DNA of 16,351 bases from Nitrospinota bacterium (GCA_016207035.1 JACQQJ010000140.1:1-16351), one strand, 5' to 3'. Numbered from the stretch's first letter, positions 3 through 14,048 are shown. Made by a program: numbers and translations. Notes: a model not told the origin generated them from the sequence alone.

Positions 3-80
<78 letters not shown>

Positions 81-1636: not shown

Positions 1637-1674
1637 AACTTTCAACTTTTAACTTTTAACTTTCAACTTTTTTT
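1637..1674. repeat. Tandem heptamer repeat (AACTTTY)x5 abutting the glnA SD
   Basis: The units are aactttc aactttt aactttt aactttc aacttttttt. On the minus strand this is (AAAGTTR)n, immediately 5' of the glnA RBS. Confidence 0.7.
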
Positions 1675-3443: not shown

Positions 3444-3701
3444 ATTATTATCCCTCCCTCTGAAATTATTATGATTCAGATGCCCCTCCCTTCAGGGCGA
3501 GGTAATTCACCATAATAAGTATTTCCATTGTTTCCCCATTTTTTATCATATATATTTTGTTAAACCATTAATGACGCGATGAGGTTATAACCACGCCGGC
3601 TTGTGTTTCCCTGGTAACCAGAGTAACCTGGAATCCCCATAACATGAGACCATCATGTTCGATATCATGAGAAGTAACTTCCCCCTGTACAAAAATGAAG
3701 A

Positions 3702-5114
3702 TTACACCTCAATAGAGCTACGAGGTAGGTGATACGCATGTGTTCCGTGTTCCTCTACATCCAGTCCTTCTAATTCTTCTTCCGGAGAAACTCGCAAATT
3801 CCCCATCATTTTTAACGCGCCGAAAAGAATCAGCCCCATTCCAAAGGCCCAAACAAAGCATGTTACAACGCCAGTTGCCTGAGCAATTAAAAGCTTTGTG
3901 CCACCGCCAAATAAAAGTCCGTTACCTGTTGTGTTTGGCATGAACATATCCTGAGCAAAAAGCCCGAGACAAAGTGTTCCAAAAGCGCCGCACATTCCAT
4001 GCACTGGAATGGCTCCAACCGGGTCATCAATATGCAGCTTGTCTAACAAAAGAACGCCAAGGACAACCACGATGCCTGCAGCGCCACCAATAATAACAGA
4101 GGAAAGCGGGCTTACATATGCGCAGGGCGCCGTGATGGCGACAAGACCGGCAAGTGCACCGTTTAAAGACATGCCGATATCCCATCTGCCAAACATCCTT
4201 TTAGAAAAAAGCAGTGCTGTGATAACACCGGCGGCGGCTGCCAGATTGGTTGTGACGGCTATATGCGCGATGTTATCCACAGTTCCTGACATTGTAGAGC
4301 CGGGATTAAACCCGAACCAGCCGAGCCACAGAATAAACACGCCAAGCGTTGCCATGGGGAGATTATGCCCCAGAATGACGTTGACGCTTCCATCTTTGTT
4401 ATATTTCCCTATGCGAGGTCCTAACATTATAGAACCTGCGAGTGCTACCCACCCGCCTACGGAATGTACGACGGTAGAGCCTGCAAAATCCCACATTCCC
4501 ATTTTTGCAAGCCAGCCTGCTCCCCATACCCAGTGCCCGAAAATCGGATAAATAATCAAGCTGATGAAAATGCTGTACCACAGATACGCTGAAAACTTTG
4601 TGCGCTCCGCCATGGCGCCGGACACAATCGTTGCCGACGTTGCCGCAAACACAAGCTGAAACATATACTTTGCGTAGATGGACACATTTGCCCACGCTAT
4701 GGGTTCAAAACTCTTTATCGGGTCACCTGCAAGAAAAAAACCTGTCGTGCCGATAAAATCGTTTCCCGTTCCAAACATCAAGCCGAATCCTATTGCCCAG
4801 TACGCAATGGAGCCAAAGCAAAAATCAAGCAGGTTTTTCATCATAATGTTGTTTGTATTTTTCGCCTGTGTAAAACCTCCTTCCACATACGCAAACCCTG
4901 CCTGCATCCAGAACACAAGAAATGCCGTTACCAGCACCCACACCATGTCTATGGCGCGCGCATGAGCGTCTAATTTTGTGGATAAATCAGTAATGGTTGG
5001 CACTGCGTCCTCCGCAAGGGACAATAGCGGCTTGCATAAAAATGCTAAAAGCATAACCACAACCCACCCCGCAAAGAATTTCCATCTCTTTCTTTGATAC
5101 TTTTTTAAAACCAT
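3702..5114 (-). CDS. amt: Ammonium transporter (Amt/MEP family), paralog of downstream amt
   Basis: The ORF track extends to 5192, but the start is set at MVLKKYQRKRW (5114). This is based on the RBS AGGGAGGG and a leader about 40 nt long that is near-identical to the amt1 start region (ccatattattatccctccct). Length is 471 aa, the same as amt1. A strong Amt signature is present. Confidence 0.9.
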   Translation of the reverse strand: MVLKKYQRKRWKFFAGWVVVMLLAFLCKPLLSLAEDAVPTITDLSTKLDAHARAIDMVWVLVTAFLVFWMQAGFAYVEGGFTQAKNTNNIMMKNLLDFCFGSIAYWAIGFGLMFGTGNDFIGTTGFFLAGDPIKSFEPIAWANVSIYAKYMFQLVFAATSATIVSGAMAERTKFSAYLWYSIFISLIIYPIFGHWVWGAGWLAKMGMWDFAGSTVVHSVGGWVALAGSIMLGPRIGKYNKDGSVNVILGHNLPMATLGVFILWLGWFGFNPGSTMSGTVDNIAHIAVTTNLAAAAGVITALLFSKRMFGRWDIGMSLNGALAGLVAITAPCAYVSPLSSVIIGGAAGIVVVLGVLLLDKLHIDDPVGAIPVHGMCGAFGTLCLGLFAQDMFMPNTTGNGLLFGGGTKLLIAQATGVVTCFVWAFGMGLILFGALKMMGNLRVSPEEELEGLDVEEHGTHAYHLPRSSIEV

Positions 5115-6734: not shown

Positions 6735-6914
6735 TTAATCAACTAAGTTTTTAAGCCTCTTTATTTTGTCTATTACAACCTTTGATTTTGGCAGACTATC
6801 CCCCCTTTCCCATCTGGAGACTGTGGTTACTGTGACGCCAATCCTTCTTGCAAATTCATCCTGCGTCATTCCCAAGCTCTCCCTTATATTTTTTATTTCT
6901 TCTCTTTTGAACAT
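6735..6914 (-). CDS. XRE-family helix-turn-helix transcriptional regulator (small, about 59 aa)
   Basis: HTH_3 motif MTQDEFARRIGVTVTTVSRWERG. The ORF track extends to 6941, but a sigma-54-like promoter overlaps those codons, so the start is set at MFKREE (6914). Confidence 0.65.
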   Translation of the reverse strand: MFKREEIKNIRESLGMTQDEFARRIGVTVTTVSRWERGDSLPKSKVVIDKIKRLKNLVD

Positions 6915-6929
6915 CTGTATATACATGTG

Positions 6930-6945
6930 AGCAAAGGGCATGCCA
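6930..6945 (-). promoter_or_regulatory. Sigma-54 (-24/-12) promoter TGGCAT-N5-TTGCT heading the XRE-OMP-glnK-amt-amt(-glnA) gene string
   Basis: The minus strand reads TGGCATgccctTTGCT, with GG and GC at the canonical spacing. An ATG lies 16 nt downstream of the -12 element, implying a very short leader or a leaderless transcript. Confidence 0.5.
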
Positions 6946-6952
6946 GGAAGCC

Positions 6953-6990
6953 GTTTAAACAGTTTAAACCGATTAAACCGTTCAACCTGT
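6953..6990. promoter_or_regulatory. Array of palindromic GTTTAAAC-like repeats just upstream of the sigma-54 promoter
   Basis: The units are gtttaaac / a-gtttaaac / c-gattaaac / c-gttcaac, direct repeats of a self-palindromic octamer. Candidate regulator or architectural-protein binding sites. Confidence 0.35.
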
Positions 6991-7179
6991 TGATTTGGTT
7001 AAGGAAAATAGTTGGAAGGTCAGAAACTAAAAGACAGGAATCAGGAGTTTATATGCCCTATATTGAAGCAATAAGGTATTTTTTATGCCTGATTTTATAG
7101 CACTGTTATTAAACAGATAAAACTTTGGTTATTGAGTTTTAAATAATAGAAGATACACCAAAGAACTATCCTCCTGTAT

Positions 7180-8439
7180 CTATTCCTTTGTAAGCTCCTT
7201 TAATTGATTTAAAAGAAAAATGTCAAGGACTGGATTCCCTGATGTATGACTGCTGCCTCCTACAATAGCTGATGGAACTTTAACCTCTTTAAGTGCATTT
7301 GCCACCCCTATAAGGGTATCTCTCTTCATCTGCAGTCTGAGTTCAAGGGAATTGTCTGCCTTTGCCAGTGCCTGCCTCCACTCAGCCTCTTTTAGAGAGG
7401 CAATCCTCTTTCCTTCTGCTTCTTCCATAATCGCCTGTTTCTCAAGTCTTGCCTTCTCCAAAAATAGTTGTGCAGTCTCTTTCTCCCTTTGGGCATTGAT
7501 TAATGCAACTGTCTTCTCCTTCTCTGCCTCTATCGTTGACACCTCTGCCTCTTTTTCAGCACGTATCCTTGCCTCTAATCTCTGTGGTTCTTCTCTTGCC
7601 TTTGTCTCTGCCTGAAATTTCTCCTCCTCAGCCTTTGCAGTAATAGCATCCTGTTTTGCCTTTTCTGCTGCAATAATTGCATTATTCCTCTGCTGTTCTA
7701 ATAATCTCTGTTCATCAAACTTTGATTGGGACTGTTTATCATATTCAATCTTCTTTAAGGTAAAATTCCTGATAGCAATCCCGAATTTATCTGTAATTCC
7801 AGGCATTCTTACCGGTAACAAGATACCATTTTCTGTTTTTGTAAGAGGGATTAACATAATATTCCCATCTGTTACCCTTTTATCATAAGTAATCAGACCG
7901 TTCTGAAGACTATCAAATATATCCCTGATAAAATTCCCCCTCTCACGAATTGAGTCTGTGCTGCTATATGAGGCAGCCACGAGGGTCATCACAGTATTAA
8001 TATAGTTCCTCAATATCCTCTGCTGAAGATTATCTTCGTTTTGTGCCTCCTGGATGATCAATCTTATTTTTTCAGGGTCAGATGGCATTGTATACCGTAT
8101 CACCCCATTTATATTTGCAATGCCATTGTCCTTAAATACAACACTGATTGAATCAACAATCTTCCTCTCCTCTTTTTTTACCTTCTCTACATGATCTTCA
8201 AAAGTAACAGCCCCTGATACCCTGAACTTAGTTACTTCGCTGAACAACCCTTTCCAGTAAAGACCTGGATTTGTGATAATCTTTAATTCCCCACTTGGCC
8301 ACTTCTGAACTACAAGATAGTGACCGGTAGAGTTTTTTCCAAAGAGAGAATAGATTATCAACACCACCAGGATAGCTGGTATTAATTTTTTAAAGTTAAC
8401 CCTTTTCCATACAGGCTCTCTTTCTAATTCTGTATTCAT
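7180..8439 (-). CDS. SPFH/Band-7 (flotillin-like) membrane protein with C-terminal coiled-coil
   Basis: An N-terminal TM segment (LIPAILVVLIIYSLF) is followed by an SPFH-like core. A long E/A/K-rich coiled-coil tail (EKAKQDAITAKAEEEKFQAETKAREE...) is typical of flotillin/YqiK-like proteins. The start is at MNTELERE (8439) with RBS AGGAGGAGA. Confidence 0.7.
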   Translation of the reverse strand: MNTELEREPVWKRVNFKKLIPAILVVLIIYSLFGKNSTGHYLVVQKWPSGELKIITNPGLYWKGLFSEVTKFRVSGAVTFEDHVEKVKKEERKIVDSISVVFKDNGIANINGVIRYTMPSDPEKIRLIIQEAQNEDNLQQRILRNYINTVMTLVAASYSSTDSIRERGNFIRDIFDSLQNGLITYDKRVTDGNIMLIPLTKTENGILLPVRMPGITDKFGIAIRNFTLKKIEYDKQSQSKFDEQRLLEQQRNNAIIAAEKAKQDAITAKAEEEKFQAETKAREEPQRLEARIRAEKEAEVSTIEAEKEKTVALINAQREKETAQLFLEKARLEKQAIMEEAEGKRIASLKEAEWRQALAKADNSLELRLQMKRDTLIGVANALKEVKVPSAIVGGSSHTSGNPVLDIFLLNQLKELTKE

Positions 8440-8451
8440 ATCTCCTCCTTC

Positions 8452-8524
8452 AAAAAATAGCAATGAGCAACAAACAACAAGCAATGAGCAATGAGTAATG
8501 AGTAATAAGTTTTTTCCTCATTGC
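8452..8524 (-). terminator. Terminator-like hairpin built from tandem heptamers (GCAATGAG/TAATGAG) after the FGE-like gene
   Basis: On the minus strand, gcaatgagg ... (ctcattg)n ... gctcattgct is followed by attttttg. It lies 3' of the FGE-like stop and immediately 5' of the SPFH RBS. Confidence 0.4.
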
Positions 8525-8541
8525 TTTCCACTCGTCACTTT

Positions 8542-9465
8542 TCACTGTTTTTTGCTCATAGTTCGTTTAACGCACCTAAATCCAATGTCTATTCTGCATG
8601 CATTTGGCTTTTCTGTGTGGCGAAAAGAGACCCGCAGGGAATTTTTATCACTTTTCCACGACCCGCCTCGGATTACCTTTAGATGGTTATTAAGCCGTGG
8701 TCTTGGATTATTTTCCTTTCCATCCATATAAAGCTCGTATCCATCTGAAGTCCACTCCCACACATTTCCTGCCATATCATTAATTCCAAAACCATTGATA
8801 CTGTAGCTTCCGACCGGCATTATCCCCCCTTTGTAAGGGGGGGAATGGGAGGCGGGTAAGCCTCTCCAGTTAGATAGGTGGGTTTCAAAATTATTACCCC
8901 ATACATACCGCATACCTTCATAACCACCACGCGCAGCATATTCCCATTGTCTCTCAGTAGGGAGAGATTTCTGAGCCCACCTGGCATAGGCATCTGCGGC
9001 ATACCAGCTTACATATATTACAGGGTAGTTCTCCTTACCTTTTGGAAATTCAGAGCTATTCCAGTCCATGAGATAGTTTTCATCTGCCTCATCGAATTTT
9101 GGATTACCTTTCTGCCAGTGGGGATTGGCAAGTATAAATCTCTGATACTGAAGATAGATAACTTCATACTGATCCATAGAAAAGTCATCCAGCTCCACTC
9201 CGTGGAGAGGTCTCTCATCAAACTCGCCATCTTCACTCCCCATAGTAAATACCCCTGCTGGAATTTCAACCATTTCTTCAGAAAATTCCCCGTGCCCAGC
9301 CCCTTCTTCAAAGGGGGATGTTTGGAGATTCGCAGGGATTACCGAGACATCCTCAACCTGTTCATTCCAGTAAAATGTGATAAGTAAGGAGCAGGAGGCA
9401 AGGAGCAAGAACCCCAAAAATTTTATTCTGAATTCTGTATTCTGAATTCTGTCTCCTGTATTCAT
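8542..9465 (-). CDS. FGE/SUMF1-sulfatase-fold lipoprotein lacking the catalytic Cys pair (NirV-like)
   Basis: Hallmarks of the FGE fold are present (GNVWEWTSD, RGGSW, GFRCV). There is no CxxxxC after RGGS, so it is probably not a true formylglycine-generating enzyme. The N-terminus MNTGDRIQNTEFRIKFLGFLLLASC has a lipobox LASC. Its ATG overlaps the stop of the upstream octahaem gene (ATGA). Confidence 0.75.
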   Translation of the reverse strand: MNTGDRIQNTEFRIKFLGFLLLASCSLLITFYWNEQVEDVSVIPANLQTSPFEEGAGHGEFSEEMVEIPAGVFTMGSEDGEFDERPLHGVELDDFSMDQYEVIYLQYQRFILANPHWQKGNPKFDEADENYLMDWNSSEFPKGKENYPVIYVSWYAADAYARWAQKSLPTERQWEYAARGGYEGMRYVWGNNFETHLSNWRGLPASHSPPYKGGIMPVGSYSINGFGINDMAGNVWEWTSDGYELYMDGKENNPRPRLNNHLKVIRGGSWKSDKNSLRVSFRHTEKPNACRIDIGFRCVKRTMSKKQ

Positions 9466-10808
9466 TTCCCCTTATCCTTCCTCTCCCTTATCTCATTTAT
9501 CATTCTCTTCAATTCCACTCTCCCCCTTGCCAGCTCATAAAAACCGTGCCACTGGGTATAATCAGGACCCATCATGGATGCCCCCATCCTTGCCCTCCTC
9601 CCCTCATGGTGCCAGTATTCAAAGAATTTAAATTCCAAATCCTCATCAAATTTATCCTTTGTTAAATACCCCAGCTTATAAAGCTCGTCCATCTCCTTTT
9701 TTATAGGTTTATAGTATTCTTCATTATAAAGAGAGATCACATTATCAAACTGCTGGTAATATCCCTCCACCCAATTCTTTGAATGACATGATAGGCAGAC
9801 CATCTGCATCCTCTCCCTTTTGTTTTTCCAGTCCTTCCTCTTTTCAGAGAGGGGCCATTTAAGCTCCCATGAGAGTCTTTCACTCACATTATGAGATGGT
9901 TCAAGCATCCCTATTCCTGACATGTGACAGGTAGCACAGGTTGGTGCCCTGAAATATTTTGTATCCCATACAGAAGGTGCTACCTCCATATTCCATTTAT
10001 GTTTTTCTGAACTGTATATCACCCCATGTTTAGATTCCATATATATCTCATACTGTGGGTGGTCAGGACCCATATGGCATGTCCCGCATGCCTCCGGTGT
10101 CCTCGCCTCTGTAATTGAAAAGAGGTGTCGTGTATGACAGGCAGTGCATGACCCTTTGCTCCCATCGGGATTGACACGGCCTATTCCATTATTGGGCCAT
10201 GTATCTTTATCAAAAATTCCATTAGATTCGCTTCGCTCACTACGAGTTTTAACCTTTATAACTGACCCATGACACTTCTCACACCCCATAACTGCAGCCG
10301 CCTTTCCTTCTATTTTATAGGCAAGTGTATCATCACCTGCCCTGTCACCTTCAAGGACTTGTCCTGACCCTGAACTTGATTCAGGGGTTTCAGGATTTTT
10401 GATGAAAGAGACAGCCTTTGAATGCATAGATTCATTAAATTCCATAACCTGTTTTGGGTGGCATCTGGAGCAGTCCTTAGGACTTACAATAGCAGAGATA
10501 ACCTCACCTTCATGTTTTCTCGCATCTGCATCAGTAGTATCAGCCTGATGACAGTCTATACAGGTAACCTGTGCCTTTGCATGATTGCTCTTCTCCCAGT
10601 CATTGACAATTCCAGGGGACAATTGGCTATGACAGAGAATACATCTCTTTGCCACATCTATCTCCCCCTTTGTCTTCTTTATTGCAAGAGCATCGGAGGA
10701 AAAAAGCAGAACGTAGAATACAGAATACAAAATACAGAATAATAATATTATGCACCATCTCTTCTGACTTCTGACTTCTGACTTCTGACTTCTGTATTCT
10801 GTATTCAT
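9462..10808 (-). CDS. Octahaem cytochrome c, HAO (hydroxylamine oxidoreductase)-family-like
   Basis: There are eight CXXCH motifs (CILCH, CIDCH, CSRCH, CEKCH, CTACH, CGTCH, CATCH, CLSCH) in about 410 mature residues. A signal peptide ...FSSDALA|IKK is present. The start is taken at ATG 10808 (MNTEYRSQK...), 15 nt inside the ORF-track GTG. Its ATG overlaps the stop of the NrfH-like gene (ATGA). Confidence 0.8.
   Translation of the reverse strand: MNTEYRSQKSEVRSQKRWCIILLFCILYSVFYVLLFSSDALAIKKTKGEIDVAKRCILCHSQLSPGIVNDWEKSNHAKAQVTCIDCHQADTTDADARKHEGEVISAIVSPKDCSRCHPKQVMEFNESMHSKAVSFIKNPETPESSSGSGQVLEGDRAGDDTLAYKIEGKAAAVMGCEKCHGSVIKVKTRSERSESNGIFDKDTWPNNGIGRVNPDGSKGSCTACHTRHLFSITEARTPEACGTCHMGPDHPQYEIYMESKHGVIYSSEKHKWNMEVAPSVWDTKYFRAPTCATCHMSGIGMLEPSHNVSERLSWELKWPLSEKRKDWKNKRERMQMVCLSCHSKNWVEGYYQQFDNVISLYNEEYYKPIKKEMDELYKLGYLTKDKFDEDLEFKFFEYWHHEGRRARMGASMMGPDYTQWHGFYELARGRVELKRMINEIRERKDKGK
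10716..10803. repeat. Heptanucleotide tandem repeats in the first 14 codons of the octahaem gene, plus an inverted copy in the signal-peptide coding region
   Basis: Plus strand 10762-10803 is (tctgact)x4 then (tctgtat)x2. On the coding strand this encodes MNTEYRSQKSEVRSQKR. Plus strand 10716-10740 (gaatacagaatacaaaatacagaat) is its reverse complement and encodes the signal-peptide h-region. The two can form a hairpin of at least 13 bp spanning the start codon. Confidence 0.85.
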
Positions 10809-11353
10809 CAACTTTCCCTCCACATATGAACCAGGTTTTGATGGCAGTTCAGACAGCTTTTTACCTCTCCCCTTTTAAATGCCTTGTGCCCTAAGAGTCC
10901 GCCCCTTTGAAGCTCTGATGGAAAGAGATTTTTATGGCATTTGAGACATGCCTCAGACCTGATATTTTTTGCCGCAGACACTTTCCACTTTTGATGGTCA
11001 AAGTCTTCAGGTCTTAATAGGAAGTGCATAATAGTATCCTTCATACCCTGTCTAACCTTTGCATACCACTTATTCATTTCCCCAGGCGGCAGATGGCAGT
11101 CAGCGCAATCTGCCACTACCCCTCTGCTGCTGTCATAATGACTTGATTTAAGATACTGCTGATATGGCTCAATCATTTCATGGCATTGTGCCGAGCAGAA
11201 TTTATTTGTAGATGAATAATGAAATGAAATCGTTGTGAGACCATAAAATATTATCAACCCTGTCGTAGTCAGGATGACGATAGCACTTATCTGTACCCTG
11301 CTCGGGGAAGGTCTCTTAAAGCCCTCATCTATGTCTGCTCTGTTTTTATCCAT
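10808..11353 (-). CDS. NapC/NirT/NrfH-family membrane-anchored tetrahaem cytochrome c (quinol dehydrogenase)
   Basis: The 181-aa protein has an N-terminal TM helix (VQISAIVILTTTGLIIFYGLTTI). There are four haem motifs. The first is non-canonical, CSAQCH (CX3CH); the others are CADCH, CLKCH, CLNCH. Confidence 0.8.
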   Translation of the reverse strand: MDKNRADIDEGFKRPSPSRVQISAIVILTTTGLIIFYGLTTISFHYSSTNKFCSAQCHEMIEPYQQYLKSSHYDSSRGVVADCADCHLPPGEMNKWYAKVRQGMKDTIMHFLLRPEDFDHQKWKVSAAKNIRSEACLKCHKNLFPSELQRGGLLGHKAFKRGEVKSCLNCHQNLVHMWRES

Positions 11354-11375
11354 TAAAGATAAGAATAGGGTACTA

Positions 11376-11440
11376 GAGCACCAGTCACCAGTGCACCAGA
11401 AAAATATTTCTATTACTGGTGTTCTGGTGTTATGGTGCTC
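11376..11440 (-). terminator. Hairpin of octamer repeats NNCACCAG; likely terminator of amt3 and a repeat-family member
   Basis: The left arm gagcaccag-tcaccag-tgcaccag pairs with the right arm ctggtgtt-ctggtgtt-atggtgctc, separated by a 16-nt loop. It directly abuts the amt3 stop and is followed on the minus strand by T-rich sequence. Confidence 0.5.
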
Positions 11441-12790
11441 TTATTTTATATTTGTTATCTGGAAATCAGGGTATGCCGCTGCCGTATGCTCTGAATAATC
11501 AAGCCCGAGATACTCCTCCTCTTCTGATACCCTGAGCCCAATTGCCTTCTTGATTAAACTGAAAATCCCATAGGAAACGAAAAATGACCAGAGAAAGGCT
11601 ATAATACTGCCTAATAGTTGAATGCCTATATTCCCAATATTAAACATCTCACCTGTTTTAAATATACCAAGTGCTAAAGTCCCCCAAACACCACAGACCC
11701 CGTGAACAGAAATTGCTCCCACAGGGTCATCTATCCTTAATCTTTCAAACTGAAGAACAGAGAAAACGACAATAACCCCTGCAATTATACCTATAATTAC
11801 AGCCCATAATGGCTCTACATGGGCACAACCGGCAGTAATAGCAACAAGGCCTGAGAGGGCACCATTGAGGGTCATTCCCACATCAGGCTTGTTAAATTTA
11901 AACCATGCTGTAATCATACCTGATATTGCTGCTGCTGAACCTGATAAGGTGGTATTTATCATAATCTGGGCAATTTTACTCCCTCCCTCAAGGGTATTGC
12001 CGGCATTAAAGCCATACCATCCAAACCACAGGATGAGTGTTCCGAGGGCTGCGAGCGGTAGGTTATGTCCGAGTATGGGGTTAATTGTTCCGTCCTTTCT
12101 GAATTTTCCGCTCCTTGGACCAAGGACAATAGTCCCTGCCAGCCCTGCCCATCCGCCAATGGCATGTATTACCGTTGAACCTGCAAAGTCATGAAAACCA
12201 AGTTTCTCAAGCCATCCATCCCCATGATAAAAGCTCCCCCAGACCCAGCTCCCAAAGACTGGATATATGAATGATGACATAGCTGCTGTAAACATGAGTG
12301 AAGCAGAGAATCTTGTCCTCTCTGCCATAGCCCCTGATACTATGGCTGCTGTTGAAGATACAAAGACCAACTGATACATCCAGAAGGCAAAGAGCCATGG
12401 GTCACGGGACTCAGCATAATCATGCAAAAAAAAGCCTTCTATGCCAAAGAGTCCATTGGAAATCCCGAACATAATGCCAAAACCTACTGCCCAGAAGACA
12501 ATTGAACTAACTGCAAAATCCATCATATTCTTCATAATGGCATTAACTGCACTCTTTGCCCGTGTGAAGCCAATCTCCACCATGATAAACCCTGCCTTCA
12601 TGAAGAAGACAAGGATCGTGGCAATACATATCCAGACAATATCCAGATTTACCTGAACATCCTCTGATGTGATAATCCTCTCTGCTGAGGAATCATTCGC
12701 ATTGATAAAATTCCAGAAAAGAGACAGGATTAAAAATTTAAAAATTATTTTCATCCTCTTTTGTGAACCAAAGGCTTGTGAGAGTTTCAT
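11441..12790 (-). CDS. amt: Ammonium transporter (Amt/MEP family), third copy
   Basis: The 449-aa ORF has an Amt signature (D..W.......FFM..GF..VE.GF.R.K, multiple TM helices). A signal peptide is present. An alternative start is M13 at 12754. Confidence 0.88.
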   Translation of the reverse strand: MKLSQAFGSQKRMKIIFKFLILSLFWNFINANDSSAERIITSEDVQVNLDIVWICIATILVFFMKAGFIMVEIGFTRAKSAVNAIMKNMMDFAVSSIVFWAVGFGIMFGISNGLFGIEGFFLHDYAESRDPWLFAFWMYQLVFVSSTAAIVSGAMAERTRFSASLMFTAAMSSFIYPVFGSWVWGSFYHGDGWLEKLGFHDFAGSTVIHAIGGWAGLAGTIVLGPRSGKFRKDGTINPILGHNLPLAALGTLILWFGWYGFNAGNTLEGGSKIAQIMINTTLSGSAAAISGMITAWFKFNKPDVGMTLNGALSGLVAITAGCAHVEPLWAVIIGIIAGVIVVFSVLQFERLRIDDPVGAISVHGVCGVWGTLALGIFKTGEMFNIGNIGIQLLGSIIAFLWSFFVSYGIFSLIKKAIGLRVSEEEEYLGLDYSEHTAAAYPDFQITNIK

Positions 12791-12803
12791 TTAAATAAGG
12801 ATT

Positions 12804-12819
12804 AGCAAAATACATGCCG
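12804..12819 (-). promoter_or_regulatory. Sigma-54-like (-24/-12) element CGGCAT-N5-TTGCT upstream of amt3
   Basis: The minus strand reads CGGCATgtattTTGCT, the same core as the element at 6930-6945. The amt3 M1 ATG lies 14 nt downstream of the element, again implying a leaderless or near-leaderless start. Alternatively it serves the M13 start with a 39-nt leader. Confidence 0.4.
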
Positions 12820-12861
12820 TAAAAGATATAGGTGTGGATACCTTATAATGTGGGTTATATG

Positions 12862-12898
12862 AGAAAAAGCGGTAAGAAACTGCCTAATAATTAGGCAG
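12862..12898 (-). terminator. Rho-independent terminator after the cbb3 cluster
   Basis: A perfect hairpin ctgcctaa-taa-ttaggcag is followed on the minus strand by tttcttaccgctttttctc. Confidence 0.6.
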
Positions 12899-12964
12899 AT
12901 GATAAAGGATGTGACTAAACTTATAGCAGGAAGAATAAAAAAAGTCTATCTGGCAAATTATTTA

Positions 12965-13147
12965 TCATCTCCTGTAGTCCTGCCACTGGGTAGTATCAGG
13001 ATTAGTAGTCTTTAGCCAATGAGAAAAGTCAGGACGCCAGTATATTGCAAGATATATAAGACCCCAGATGATAAATATACCCCATATCAGCTTTATCCAG
13101 AGAGGGAGAGGATTATCCTGTTGTCCTATTTTTGTCTTTTCTTCCAT
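12965..13147 (-). CDS. Small single-TM membrane protein (60 aa), possibly CcoQ-like oxidase accessory subunit
   Basis: One hydrophobic helix (LWIKLIWGIFIIWGLIYLAIYW). It is adjacent to the preceding ORF with no gap, at the end of the cco cluster. No recognisable motif; assigned by position only. Confidence 0.4.
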   Translation of the reverse strand: MEEKTKIGQQDNPLPLWIKLIWGIFIIWGLIYLAIYWRPDFSHWLKTTNPDTTQWQDYRR

Positions 13148-13447
13148 TTAAGTCCCCCTCTCTATCTCTCGCATCTTTTCTTCCATCTCAAGGATTCTAT
13201 ACTTTGCCTTTTCCATATCTTTAAAATCTCCCTTCAGAAAACTCCAGAGAAAAAGAAAAAAGAAACCGATAGCAATGAGGAGATAGGTAATAACCTGAAT
13301 TACTGCAAAGCCTGTTACCTCACCCATGGGAACTGTTCTTGCAATCTCAAAAAATTTGTATACAAATGTCAGTGATGCAAAGGTAACCCCTGAAATTACC
13401 CATGTCCATAAAATAAAAACAGCCCACTCCTTTTTATCCTTCTTCAT
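13148..13447 (-). CDS. Small two-TM membrane protein (about 99 aa), unknown function, in cco cluster
   Basis: The start is at MKKDKKEW (13447), 4 nt after the ccoO stop, with an SD AAGAGGA 11 nt upstream. There are two hydrophobic helices and a charged C-terminal tail. Confidence 0.45.
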   Translation of the reverse strand: MKKDKKEWAVFILWTWVISGVTFASLTFVYKFFEIARTVPMGEVTGFAVIQVITYLLIAIGFFFLFLWSFLKGDFKDMEKAKYRILEMEEKMREIERGT

Positions 13448-13451
13448 ATTT

Positions 13452-14048
13452 TTATTTCCTCTTCCAGTTGCCAAGCCACTGCACATAGGTGACTACAGAG
13501 AGCCCTTTTTTATTTGGTCTTCCATTTTCGTCAAAGAACCATAGGTAGGAAGGCATTACTGAATCAGGCTGAACTGAATGAGGATCATAGAAATGAGCCA
13601 CATGCCAGTCATTGCTGTGCACACCTGCCTCCCGTATGAGGTCAGGGCCCACCCTCCTCGTACCGAATAACTGCGGCATCTGTAGTTCATTCTGATACTC
13701 AGAGGCAGTTGAAATATCTCCATACCTGACTTCTTCATTCGCTACAGGTCTCACATACTGGGAATGACAGTGCCAGCATGCCTCTGCAATGTAAGTATCT
13801 CTCCCCAATTTAAGTGCCTCAGCATAGGTAACTGGAGAGGGGTCTCCAAATGCCTTCTTAAACTCAACAGGGTAGTCTTCTGATAGTTGATAGAACTCAG
13901 AATTAATATCCTCTTTCACCAGCTCATCTATAGTCTTCATCGGTATATCTTTTAAGAAGATTATTGGACCCAGCATCTGGAAGATAAATCCGAGGAGAAA
14001 AAATCCAACCCCTGCGATGATAAATATAAAACTAAACCTCTCTTTCAT
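13452..14048 (-). CDS. ccoO: cbb3-type cytochrome c oxidase subunit II (CcoO/FixO), monohaem
   Basis: The 198-aa protein has an N-terminal TM helix, a single CWHCH haem site, and the CcoO-like region GPDLIREAGVHSNDWHVAHFYDPHSVQPDSVMPSY. Confidence 0.8.
   Translation of the reverse strand: MKERFSFIFIIAGVGFFLLGFIFQMLGPIIFLKDIPMKTIDELVKEDINSEFYQLSEDYPVEFKKAFGDPSPVTYAEALKLGRDTYIAEACWHCHSQYVRPVANEEVRYGDISTASEYQNELQMPQLFGTRRVGPDLIREAGVHSNDWHVAHFYDPHSVQPDSVMPSYLWFFDENGRPNKKGLSVVTYVQWLGNWKRK

Follow-up and report, generated by a model that had tools for sequence, protein, structure and literature searches.

The stretch of DNA analyzed here (the window) is one complete 16,351-bp contig of a Nitrospinota (Nitrospinae) metagenome-assembled genome, and the - strand carries all of its genes (Table 1). 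A cbb3-like oxidase cluster is followed by a gap and then by an operon that encodes an ammonium transporter (amt3), an NrfH-like cytochrome, a multihaem cytochrome, a protein with an FGE-sulfatase domain and an SPFH protein. After a second gap comes an operon for a small XRE-family helix-turn-helix (HTH) regulator, a BBP2 porin, PII/GlnK, two further amt genes and glnA. Together the two operons hold glnA, glnK and three amt genes, and glnA, glnK and amt are classical targets of the NtrC/sigma-54 regulon. In the window's only two sizeable intergenic gaps heading nitrogen operons, on the coding strand, lie two elements of the sigma-54 (-24/-12) type. Both are probably genuine activator-dependent promoters that serve a regulon for nitrogen assimilation in a lineage of Nitrospinota, and each appears to sit so close to the start codon of its first cistron that the mRNA would be nearly leaderless.

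Table 1. Features of the 16,351-bp window. Positions in bp count from the first base; distances with a sign are relative to the predicted transcription start. SD, Shine-Dalgarno sequence; IHF, integration host factor.
Feature	Position	Strand	Description
Sigma-54 promoter of XRE-porin-glnK-amt-amt-glnA operon	6945-6930	-	TGGCATgccctTTGCT, shown as TGGCATGCCCTTTGCT
Sigma-54 promoter of amt3-NrfH-like-multihaem-FGE-SPFH operon	12819-12804	-	CGGCATgtattTTGCT, shown as CGGCATGTATTTTGCT
18-bp near-palindrome	6912-6929	-	CACATGTAT-ATACAGATG (also CATATGTAT-ATACAGATG); about -10 to +8, includes XRE ATG
GGTTTAA-like short tandem repeats, period 9	6951-6982	-	fill spacer between IHF site and -24 box
IHF-consensus site	6983-6995	-	AATCAACAGGTTG (consensus WATCAANNNNTTR); centre ~-70; one of 2 matches in the window
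XRE proximal 17-bp dyad	7054-7070	-	TGCTTCAATATAGGGCA; centre -143; putative enhancer (activator) site
XRE distal 17-bp dyad	7086-7102	-	TGCTATAAAATCAGGCA; centre -175; 32 bp from proximal (31 bp in relatives)
amt3 proximal perfect 17-bp dyad	12881-12897	-	TGCCTAATTATTAGGCA; centre -96
amt3 distal imperfect dyad	12912-12928	-	TGCTATAAGTTTAGTCA; centre -127; 31 bp from proximal
XRE-family HTH gene	6735-6914	-	59 aa (MFKREE...); ATG at predicted +6, no SD
Ammonium transporter amt3	11441-12790	-	ATG 12790 (M1) at predicted +4; Pfam Ammonium_transp, E = 3e-117
Alternative in-frame amt3 start	ATG 12754 (M13)	-	annotated start, 437 aa (P0003)
cbb3-like oxidase cluster	16318-13148	-	followed by a gap
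amt3 operon	12790-7180	-	amt3 to SPFH; followed by a gap
NrfH-like cytochrome	11353-10808	-	
Multihaem cytochrome	~10656-9462	-	
FGE-sulfatase-domain protein	9465-8542	-	
SPFH protein	8439-7180	-	
XRE operon	6914-207	-	XRE to glnA
BBP2 porin	6718-5591	-	
PII/GlnK	5520-5182	-	
amt	5192-3702	-	
amt	3443-2028	-	
glnA	1619-207	-	
tRNA-Pro	3-80		adjoins glnA at contig end

A preliminary description of the sequence had reported the two elements and their shared GGCAT-N5-TTGCT core, and we found both sequence and positions as it gave them. The core occurs exactly twice in the window when both strands are searched, i.e., at these two elements, against a chance expectation of 0.07 (200 dinucleotide-preserving shuffles, of which 1/200 reached two matches). 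The earlier estimate of about one chance match per 130 kb per strand is of the right order and, if anything, generous. Compared with the canonical TGGCAC-N5-TTGCW, the XRE element is the sole one-mismatch match in the window and the amt3 element is one among 13 two-mismatch matches. At both elements the GG and GC are exactly 10 nt apart, on the coding strand and upstream of a gene. No sigma-70-like promoter was found in the gap ahead of XRE, where 1.5 are expected. A sigma-70 promoter that would use a TATATA within the segment following the XRE element was considered and rejected: with its spacing, transcription would begin beyond the ATG, and no sigma-70-like site came up in the scan.

Relatives of the XRE locus were gathered by a metagenome scan with the porin and by lookups of XRE homologs, which gave ten further XRE loci with this promoter (L081-L084, L088, L089, L097-L100). 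GlnA, looked up as an exact protein, led to no contig. The related amt loci compared are L001 (UBA9963), L090, L091 (98% identical protein) and L098 (a fully syntenic 15-kb contig), together with the more distant amt-operon lineages L092 (Ca. Mariimomonas), L094/L095 and L096. The porin-glnK-amt-amt-glnA order behind XRE is also found in L097 and L098, and the gene order of the amt3 operon in L091, L092, L094, L096, L098 and L099. The XRE promoter reads TGGCA(T/C)-N5-TTGCT throughout the ten relatives, with N5 spacers of GCCCT, ATCCT, ACCAT, AACCT, ACCCT and GTCCT, and the amt promoter is kept as TGGCAT-N5-TTGCT in L001, L090, L091 and L098. Thus, the -24 GG, the -12 GC and the distance between them are invariant in ten related XRE loci and four related amt loci while N5 varies. 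A sigma-54 motif also lies ahead of the same amt operon in L092, L094/L095 and L096.

Upstream of each element is a pair of 17-bp dyads of the form TGC-N11-GCA, putative binding sites of an activator. The pairs (-96/-127 at amt3 and -143/-175 at XRE) are 30-32 bp apart and 90-175 nt upstream, within the ~80-200 nt at which enhancer sites are placed, and position and spacing are conserved in relatives. The XRE proximal dyad is kept as TGCTTAAAtaTaTAGCA in nine related loci. The imperfect amt3 distal dyad aligns with a perfect site, TGCCTGAAATTGAAGCA, of L001, L090 and L098, where the dyad centers are at -118/-88. The amt3 proximal palindrome is preserved by paired changes in L001 and L098 (TGCTTAAATCTTAAGCA), as TGCCTAA...TTAGGCA versus TGCTTAA...TTAAGCA. 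Five TGC-N11-GCA matches occur in the window, three of them in the two gaps upstream of the promoters. In 132.5 kb of related loci, 31/50 such dyads fall within 220 nt upstream of sigma-54 motifs (4.0 kb in all), although these sequences are homologous and the hits are not independent. The amt3 proximal dyad was also considered mainly as a terminator of the upstream oxidase operon. We rejected this, since in relatives no T-run follows the retained dyad and dyads of this type also come as a pair at the XRE promoter.

Between the enhancer dyads and the XRE promoter lies a putative IHF site that matches the consensus exactly. Its AAATCAA..TT columns are invariant in the XRE alignment, and the site is kept in all XRE loci, L097-L099 included. 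The XRE promoter thus resembles the classical enhancer-bend-promoter layout of NtrC/IHF-type sigma-54 promoters. The remaining spacer up to the -24 box is filled by short tandem repeats, and in relatives by different, lineage-specific heptamer repeats of similar total length (ACTGACC, ACTTACA, CTCATTG, TCAATCT, AATCGTA, ACTTGTA, CAACACT). Despite the differing heptamers, the enhancer-to-promoter distance holds at 125-129 nt across XRE loci. The sigma-54 assignment made in the preliminary description is supported by all of this: invariant GG/GC and spacing, a variable N5, paired dyads at enhancer distance and, at XRE, a conserved IHF-consensus site. Two further sigma-54-like promoters with the same dyad type were seen in related contigs. 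In one, at 4750-4820 of L094, the ATG at +6 opens an ORF (open reading frame) of a mere 12 codons, ~240 nt before a gene for an ANTAR regulator. The other, at 1840-2030 of L002, has a dyad pair and TGGCACacctcTTGCT, and is followed by a ~50-nt leader and an SD.

The unusual aspect of these promoters is the position of the start codons. The C of the -12 GC is at 6931 (XRE) and 12805 (amt3), and in-frame ATGs follow at 6914 (MFKREE) and 12790 (M1 of the amt ORF), 17 and 15 nt after that C. Counted from the last base of the element the distances are 16 and 14 nt, the range that had been noted before. For the predicted transcription start we took the base 12 nt after the C (C+12), the same position as given by the rule applied to E. 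coli promoters, which counts 19 bp downstream from the center of the motif (PMC4591121). The predicted +1 is then 6919 for XRE, which puts the ATG at +6, and 12793 for amt3, which puts it at +4. In related loci the XRE ATG is always 17 nt after the -12 C, also a predicted +6. The amt ATG is at C+15 in the window, L091 and L098 (+4) or at C+18 in L001 and L090 (+7). These five amt loci have three different sequences downstream of the promoter, yet the ATG stays at C+15 or C+18. The short contig L100 was considered as a transcript end and rejected, as it merely begins inside the -24 box.

Neither start codon is preceded by an SD. For amt3 M1 and XRE 6914 alike, pairing of the preceding 25 nt with the anti-SD has a duplex energy of +0.8 kcal/mol. 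The corresponding energies for FGE, the porin, glnK, both downstream amt genes and glnA range from -10.7 to -16.2 kcal/mol, and clear SDs also precede SPFH and the multihaem gene. An AUG without an SD is likewise found in L001, L090, L091 and L098 and in the XRE loci. In relatives, the sole workable starts are at C+15, C+17 and C+18 and have no SD; they open amt signal peptides (MKI.../MKT...) and XRE (MIKRED). Together with the strong SDs of the downstream genes, this supports the earlier proposal of leaderless or nearly leaderless starts. The predicted 5' ends are unstructured, with minimum free energies of -0.7 to -4.1 kcal/mol and no excess over shuffles. The distant lineages are organized differently. 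From the predicted start to the first ATG there are 48 nt in L096 and 144 nt in L094/L095, with the SD-preceded amt start further on, and in L092 well over 100 nt separate the predicted start from the SD-preceded amt start downstream. Thus, in the loci sampled, a leader goes with an SD and a promoter-abutting ATG goes without one.

One of the leadered lineages has a further feature. An ANTAR response regulator gene precedes the amt operon in L093 (5199-5786), L094 (5025-5624) and L095, and the leader of L094/L095 (5765-6000 in L094), which extends ~220 nt from the sigma-54 motif, holds a strong terminator, GCAAAGGCGCTTTT...AAAAGCGCCTTTTTTT. The regulator gene upstream and the terminator in the leader imply that antitermination control is layered on sigma-54 in this lineage.

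The missing SDs could be explained in another way if the sigma-54 sites are real and longer transcripts, arising by read-through from the upstream operons or from unrecognized promoters, are the ones translated. The SD-less AUGs would then be used internally, by a route independent of an SD, and nothing would be leaderless. We found no convincing terminator between SPFH and the XRE promoter, the sole match being inside the SPFH coding sequence, and the surroundings of both AUGs are A/U-rich and unstructured. A weak sigma-70-like site lies at 12986-12957, at chance level. However, every other well-defined gene of these operons has a strong SD, and the leadered lineages also carry one. The distance from the -12 box to the ATG is fixed across lineages though the intervening sequence changes, and a far-upstream 5' end would not require this. 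We therefore consider translation from longer transcripts quite improbable, and near-leaderless first cistrons the likelier reading.

For amt3 the start codon itself can be disputed. The promoters may be real and amt3 in this window may start at M13 (ATG 12754), behind an ordinary leader of ~39 nt, which would leave XRE alone as near-leaderless. The 437-aa product in NCBI (P0003) begins there, and its MKIIFKF... is like many homolog N-termini (MKIALF.., MKILF..). An AAGAGG precedes ATG 12754, with a duplex energy of -5.2 kcal/mol, and the 12 extra in-frame codons (MKLSQAFGSQKR) ahead of the NCBI-chosen MKIIF start are confined to the sublineage of the window and L091. Against this, the AAGAGG is at zero spacing to the ATG, which is poor for SD function, and L091 has AAAAAT there and no SD, yet retains the ATG at C+15. 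L098, L001 and L090 lack the second start altogether. Their sole ATG, at C+15 or C+18, is also the sole start that gives a signal peptide (e.g., MKTILEFVSISCLLIFLFSGSASA-ERII and MKIFLNFLIFSFIFINDVSA-ERII). A signal peptide is plausible from M1 as well; its n-region would be longer and positively charged. A start of amt3 at M13 in this window is thus unlikely, though it is the alternative to which we give the most weight. A start at M1, at the predicted +4, is plausible given the zero-spaced AAGAGG, the AAAAAT of L091 and the sole C+15/C+18 start in relatives.

The XRE start is better constrained. NCBI annotates a 68-aa protein (P0121) that begins at an ATG inside the -24 box (GGCATG). This ATG is absent in relatives, which have GGCATA or GGCAC instead, so the annotated 68-aa form is wrong, as had been suspected from the position of the element. 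The 59-aa form matches Pfam HTH_3 over residues 7-48 (52.7 bits with a gathering cut-off of 23, E = 4e-14), and the protein is conserved among relatives. Two relatives mark its N-terminus. L088 and L097 have an indel in the leader just after the +6 ATG, of 43 nt in L088 and ~60 nt in L097, that brings in an SD-like purine run and a new ATG, so that XRE opens at MFKKEE (L088) or MIIKKED (L097). L088 also has an in-frame TGA upstream of the XRE ATG. These leadered starts establish the counterpart of ATG 6914 as the XRE start, with M(F/I)K(R/K)E as the N-terminus. Another in-frame ATG, at 6926, is also conserved; at position -7 of the XRE promoter, it is outside any transcript made from there. 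In both relatives the +6 ATG is kept as the start of a small upstream ORF (L088 ~3765-3815, L097 ~1299-1365). This ORF has 5 codons in L088 and 21 in L097, and in the latter its stop codon and the XRE ATG overlap as ATGA. ATGACGC...GGGGAAGAATCT is common to both leaders, and the leaderless form of XRE may thus have arisen by a deletion between ATGA repeats.

Calls from the -24-box ATG are a gene-caller artifact that affects amt as well as XRE. The database ORFs P0001 and P0004 and the gene call of L098 (2242) start at the ATG of aTGGCAT, and the P0001, P0004, P0121 and L098 calls gain spurious N-terminal residues in this way (MAYLLLIYISI, MACLLLLSNF, MPFAHMYIQ).

The XRE start codon is embedded in an 18-bp near-palindrome that is unique in the window. 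It is invariant but for one C/T position in six aligned loci, and its flanks vary. The segment TTGCTCAYATGTATATACAGATG recurs in ten XRE loci, in L097 without one base, and in related loci the -12 box is followed by CA(T/C)ATGTATATACAG and then by the ATG. The near-palindrome could, speculatively, be an operator for the XRE product, a region for promoter melting, or both.

Several observations weigh against the interpretation offered here. The invariance of the ATG-containing XRE segment could reflect a DNA operator rather than translation. The 3-6 nt before the AUG make the mRNAs, as predicted, near-leaderless rather than strictly leaderless. The second in-frame ATG of amt3 is the annotated one and has AAGAGG directly 5' of it. 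The dyads have AT-rich inner half-sites, unlike those of E. coli NtrC (TGCACC...GGTGCA), and the amt3 proximal dyad also scores as a terminator-like hairpin in the window. Finally, GAFTGA, Walker A and RpoN-box motifs are absent from the flanks of the Nitrospinota and Nitrospirota loci examined, and the literature gave nothing usable on sigma-54, rpoN or NtrC in Nitrospina/Nitrospinota, including the N. gracilis genome paper and its supplement. The last two points are what can be said for the alternative that the lineage has no functional sigma-54 and the elements are chance matches or sites of another DNA-binding protein: neither rpoN nor genes for bacterial enhancer-binding proteins (bEBPs) were seen in the flanks of the related loci, and we found no Nitrospinota literature. 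The two matches where 0.07 are expected argue against this, as does the strict GG-N10-GC frame around a variable spacer in at least 14 related loci. A lineage distinct at phylum level also has the motif in front of this operon, the full architecture of upstream activating sequence, IHF site and promoter is present, and the regulated genes are canonical sigma-54/NtrC targets. This alternative is hardly credible in light of these features.

As promoters, the two elements are unremarkable and belong to a textbook class. They share the -24 GG/-12 GC core and the glnA, glnK and amt targets with the NtrC-activated sigma-54 promoters of enterobacteria (glnAp2, glnK-amtB, nac), as well as a pair of 17-bp dyads, TGC...GCA in their outer bases, with a spacing of about three helical turns and ~100-170 nt upstream. 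Length, outer bases and the 30-32 bp spacing agree with NtrC sites, whereas the AT-rich inner positions (TGCYTWAA...) differ from the enterobacterial TGCACC-N5-GGTGCA. Unlike in enterobacterial gln operons, a small XRE regulator and a porin head the operon here. The core TGGCAT...TTGCT is shared with SigL of Clostridioides difficile, an AT-rich Firmicute, in which promoters mapped by transcription start site (TSS) read TGGCAT-N5-TTGCT[AT], with T, not C, after GGCA (PMC7438776). SigL promoters of Firmicutes usually adjoin their own bEBP gene and drive operons for amino-acid catabolism or phosphotransferase systems; here there is no adjacent bEBP gene. IHF-assisted sigma-54 promoters include nifH of Klebsiella and Pu of Pseudomonas putida. 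The XRE promoter is like these in having a WATCAANNNNTTR site between the enhancer and the -24 box that is conserved in relatives. Unlike them, the amt3 promoter has no consensus IHF site, and the spacers consist of lineage-specific heptamer tandem repeats.

The conserved near-leaderless placement is an unusual variant of this class. Descriptions of sigma-54 transcripts generally give them leaders of ordinary length or longer. At all protein-coding intergenic sigma-54 promoters of E. coli, the predicted start precedes the start codon by 18 nt or more, with 42 nt for glnK and 73 nt for glnA (PMC4591121, Table 1), unlike the predicted 3-6 nt and the absence of an SD here. Known leaderless mRNAs include that of lambda cI from PRM, those of the controller C proteins of restriction-modification systems, and those of many actinobacterial and Deinococcus genes. 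The mRNAs predicted here would be like them in that the AUG is at the 5' end or adjoins it, an SD is lacking and the first cistron alone is affected; the XRE gene, moreover, encodes a small HTH regulator of the XRE/cI type, and in this it resembles the genes for cI and the C proteins. To our knowledge, the known leaderless mRNAs come from sigma-70-type promoters whose -10 box, often of the extended kind (TGnTA), lies at a set distance. TSS atlases tie leaderless mRNAs to sigma-70-type, often extended -10, motifs, among them that of B. japonicum (PMC4842269; see also PMC3616915). In contrast, the fixed-distance element here is a sigma-54 -12 box and the predicted leader is 3-6 nt rather than 0. 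We found no stated case of a leaderless sigma-54 transcript in open-access text, TSS atlases included, which is absence of evidence and no proof of novelty.

We propose the following mechanism. An NtrC-like, nitrogen-responsive enhancer-binding protein would bind the pair of 17-bp TGC-N11-GCA dyads 30-32 bp apart. At the XRE promoter, a bend near -70, probably made by IHF, would bring this activator to the sigma-54 holoenzyme at GG(-24)/GC(-12). Transcription would begin ~12 nt after the GC and leave ~3-6 nt before the AUG of the first cistron. Since the first cistron (the XRE regulator or the Amt transporter) has no SD, its translation would require a 5'-end-proximal, leaderless-type route, and the later cistrons would be translated from their strong SDs. 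As a consequence, read-through transcripts would bury the first AUG, so that the first cistron would be made solely from sigma-54-initiated transcripts. Taken to its full extent, the model would have leader loss join this clade's sigma-54 promoters directly to the first start codons of nitrogen operons, with translation of the first cistron dependent on a sigma-54-initiated 5' end and with feedback by XRE through the 18-bp operator. The dependence on such a 5' end would be a built-in device for insulation of transcription and translation, of a sort not known for sigma-54. We offer this wider model tentatively; taken as a whole it is possible but doubtful.

The surrounding sequence has several other features. 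Heptamer tandem repeats fill many spacers of the window (1637-1670, 8459-8510, 9424-9463, 10715-10806 and 11378-11441). Very stable hairpins directly follow stop codons within the operons, at 11445-11368, 10806-10715 and 2030-1945 on the - strand. The first two are built from inverted heptamer arrays, and the array at 10806-10715 follows the NrfH-like gene. The hairpin after amt3 has an energy of -35.2 kcal/mol (z = -7.75) and that after the amt gene ending at 2028 of -32.4 kcal/mol (z = -5.8). These hairpins may be processing, stability or attenuation elements. Untranslated gaps lie before glnA (1620-2027, ~400 nt) and between the two downstream amt genes (3444-3701, ~260 nt), with neither an Rfam match nor a sigma-54 motif in them. 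The sole match of an Rfam scan of the whole window (E <= 1) was the tRNA-Pro, so that neither the two promoters nor the sequence between amt genes holds a known leader RNA. Next after glnA in L098, which is syntenic, comes a gene for a phage-type integrase (12809-13996), a hint of an integration hotspot. The string of amt, NrfH-like, multihaem cytochrome, FGE-sulfatase-domain and SPFH genes is kept across Nitrospinota and Nitrospirota contigs, always behind a sigma-54-like promoter. This conservation suggests a periplasmic reduction step induced by nitrogen limitation (e.g., nitrite or hydroxylamine to ammonium) and coupled to uptake by Amt.

For uncultured Nitrospinota, the two operons provide a candidate nitrogen regulon with a defined promoter and enhancer motif. 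If the near-leaderless starts are true, they would explain the mis-starts of gene callers, as several database entries begin at the -24-box ATG. They would also bring a second class of promoter, and a phylum that has been little studied, into the range of leaderless-type initiation. The leadered and leaderless lineages would then be natural variants with which to probe the effect of the 5' end on the expression of nitrogen-uptake genes.

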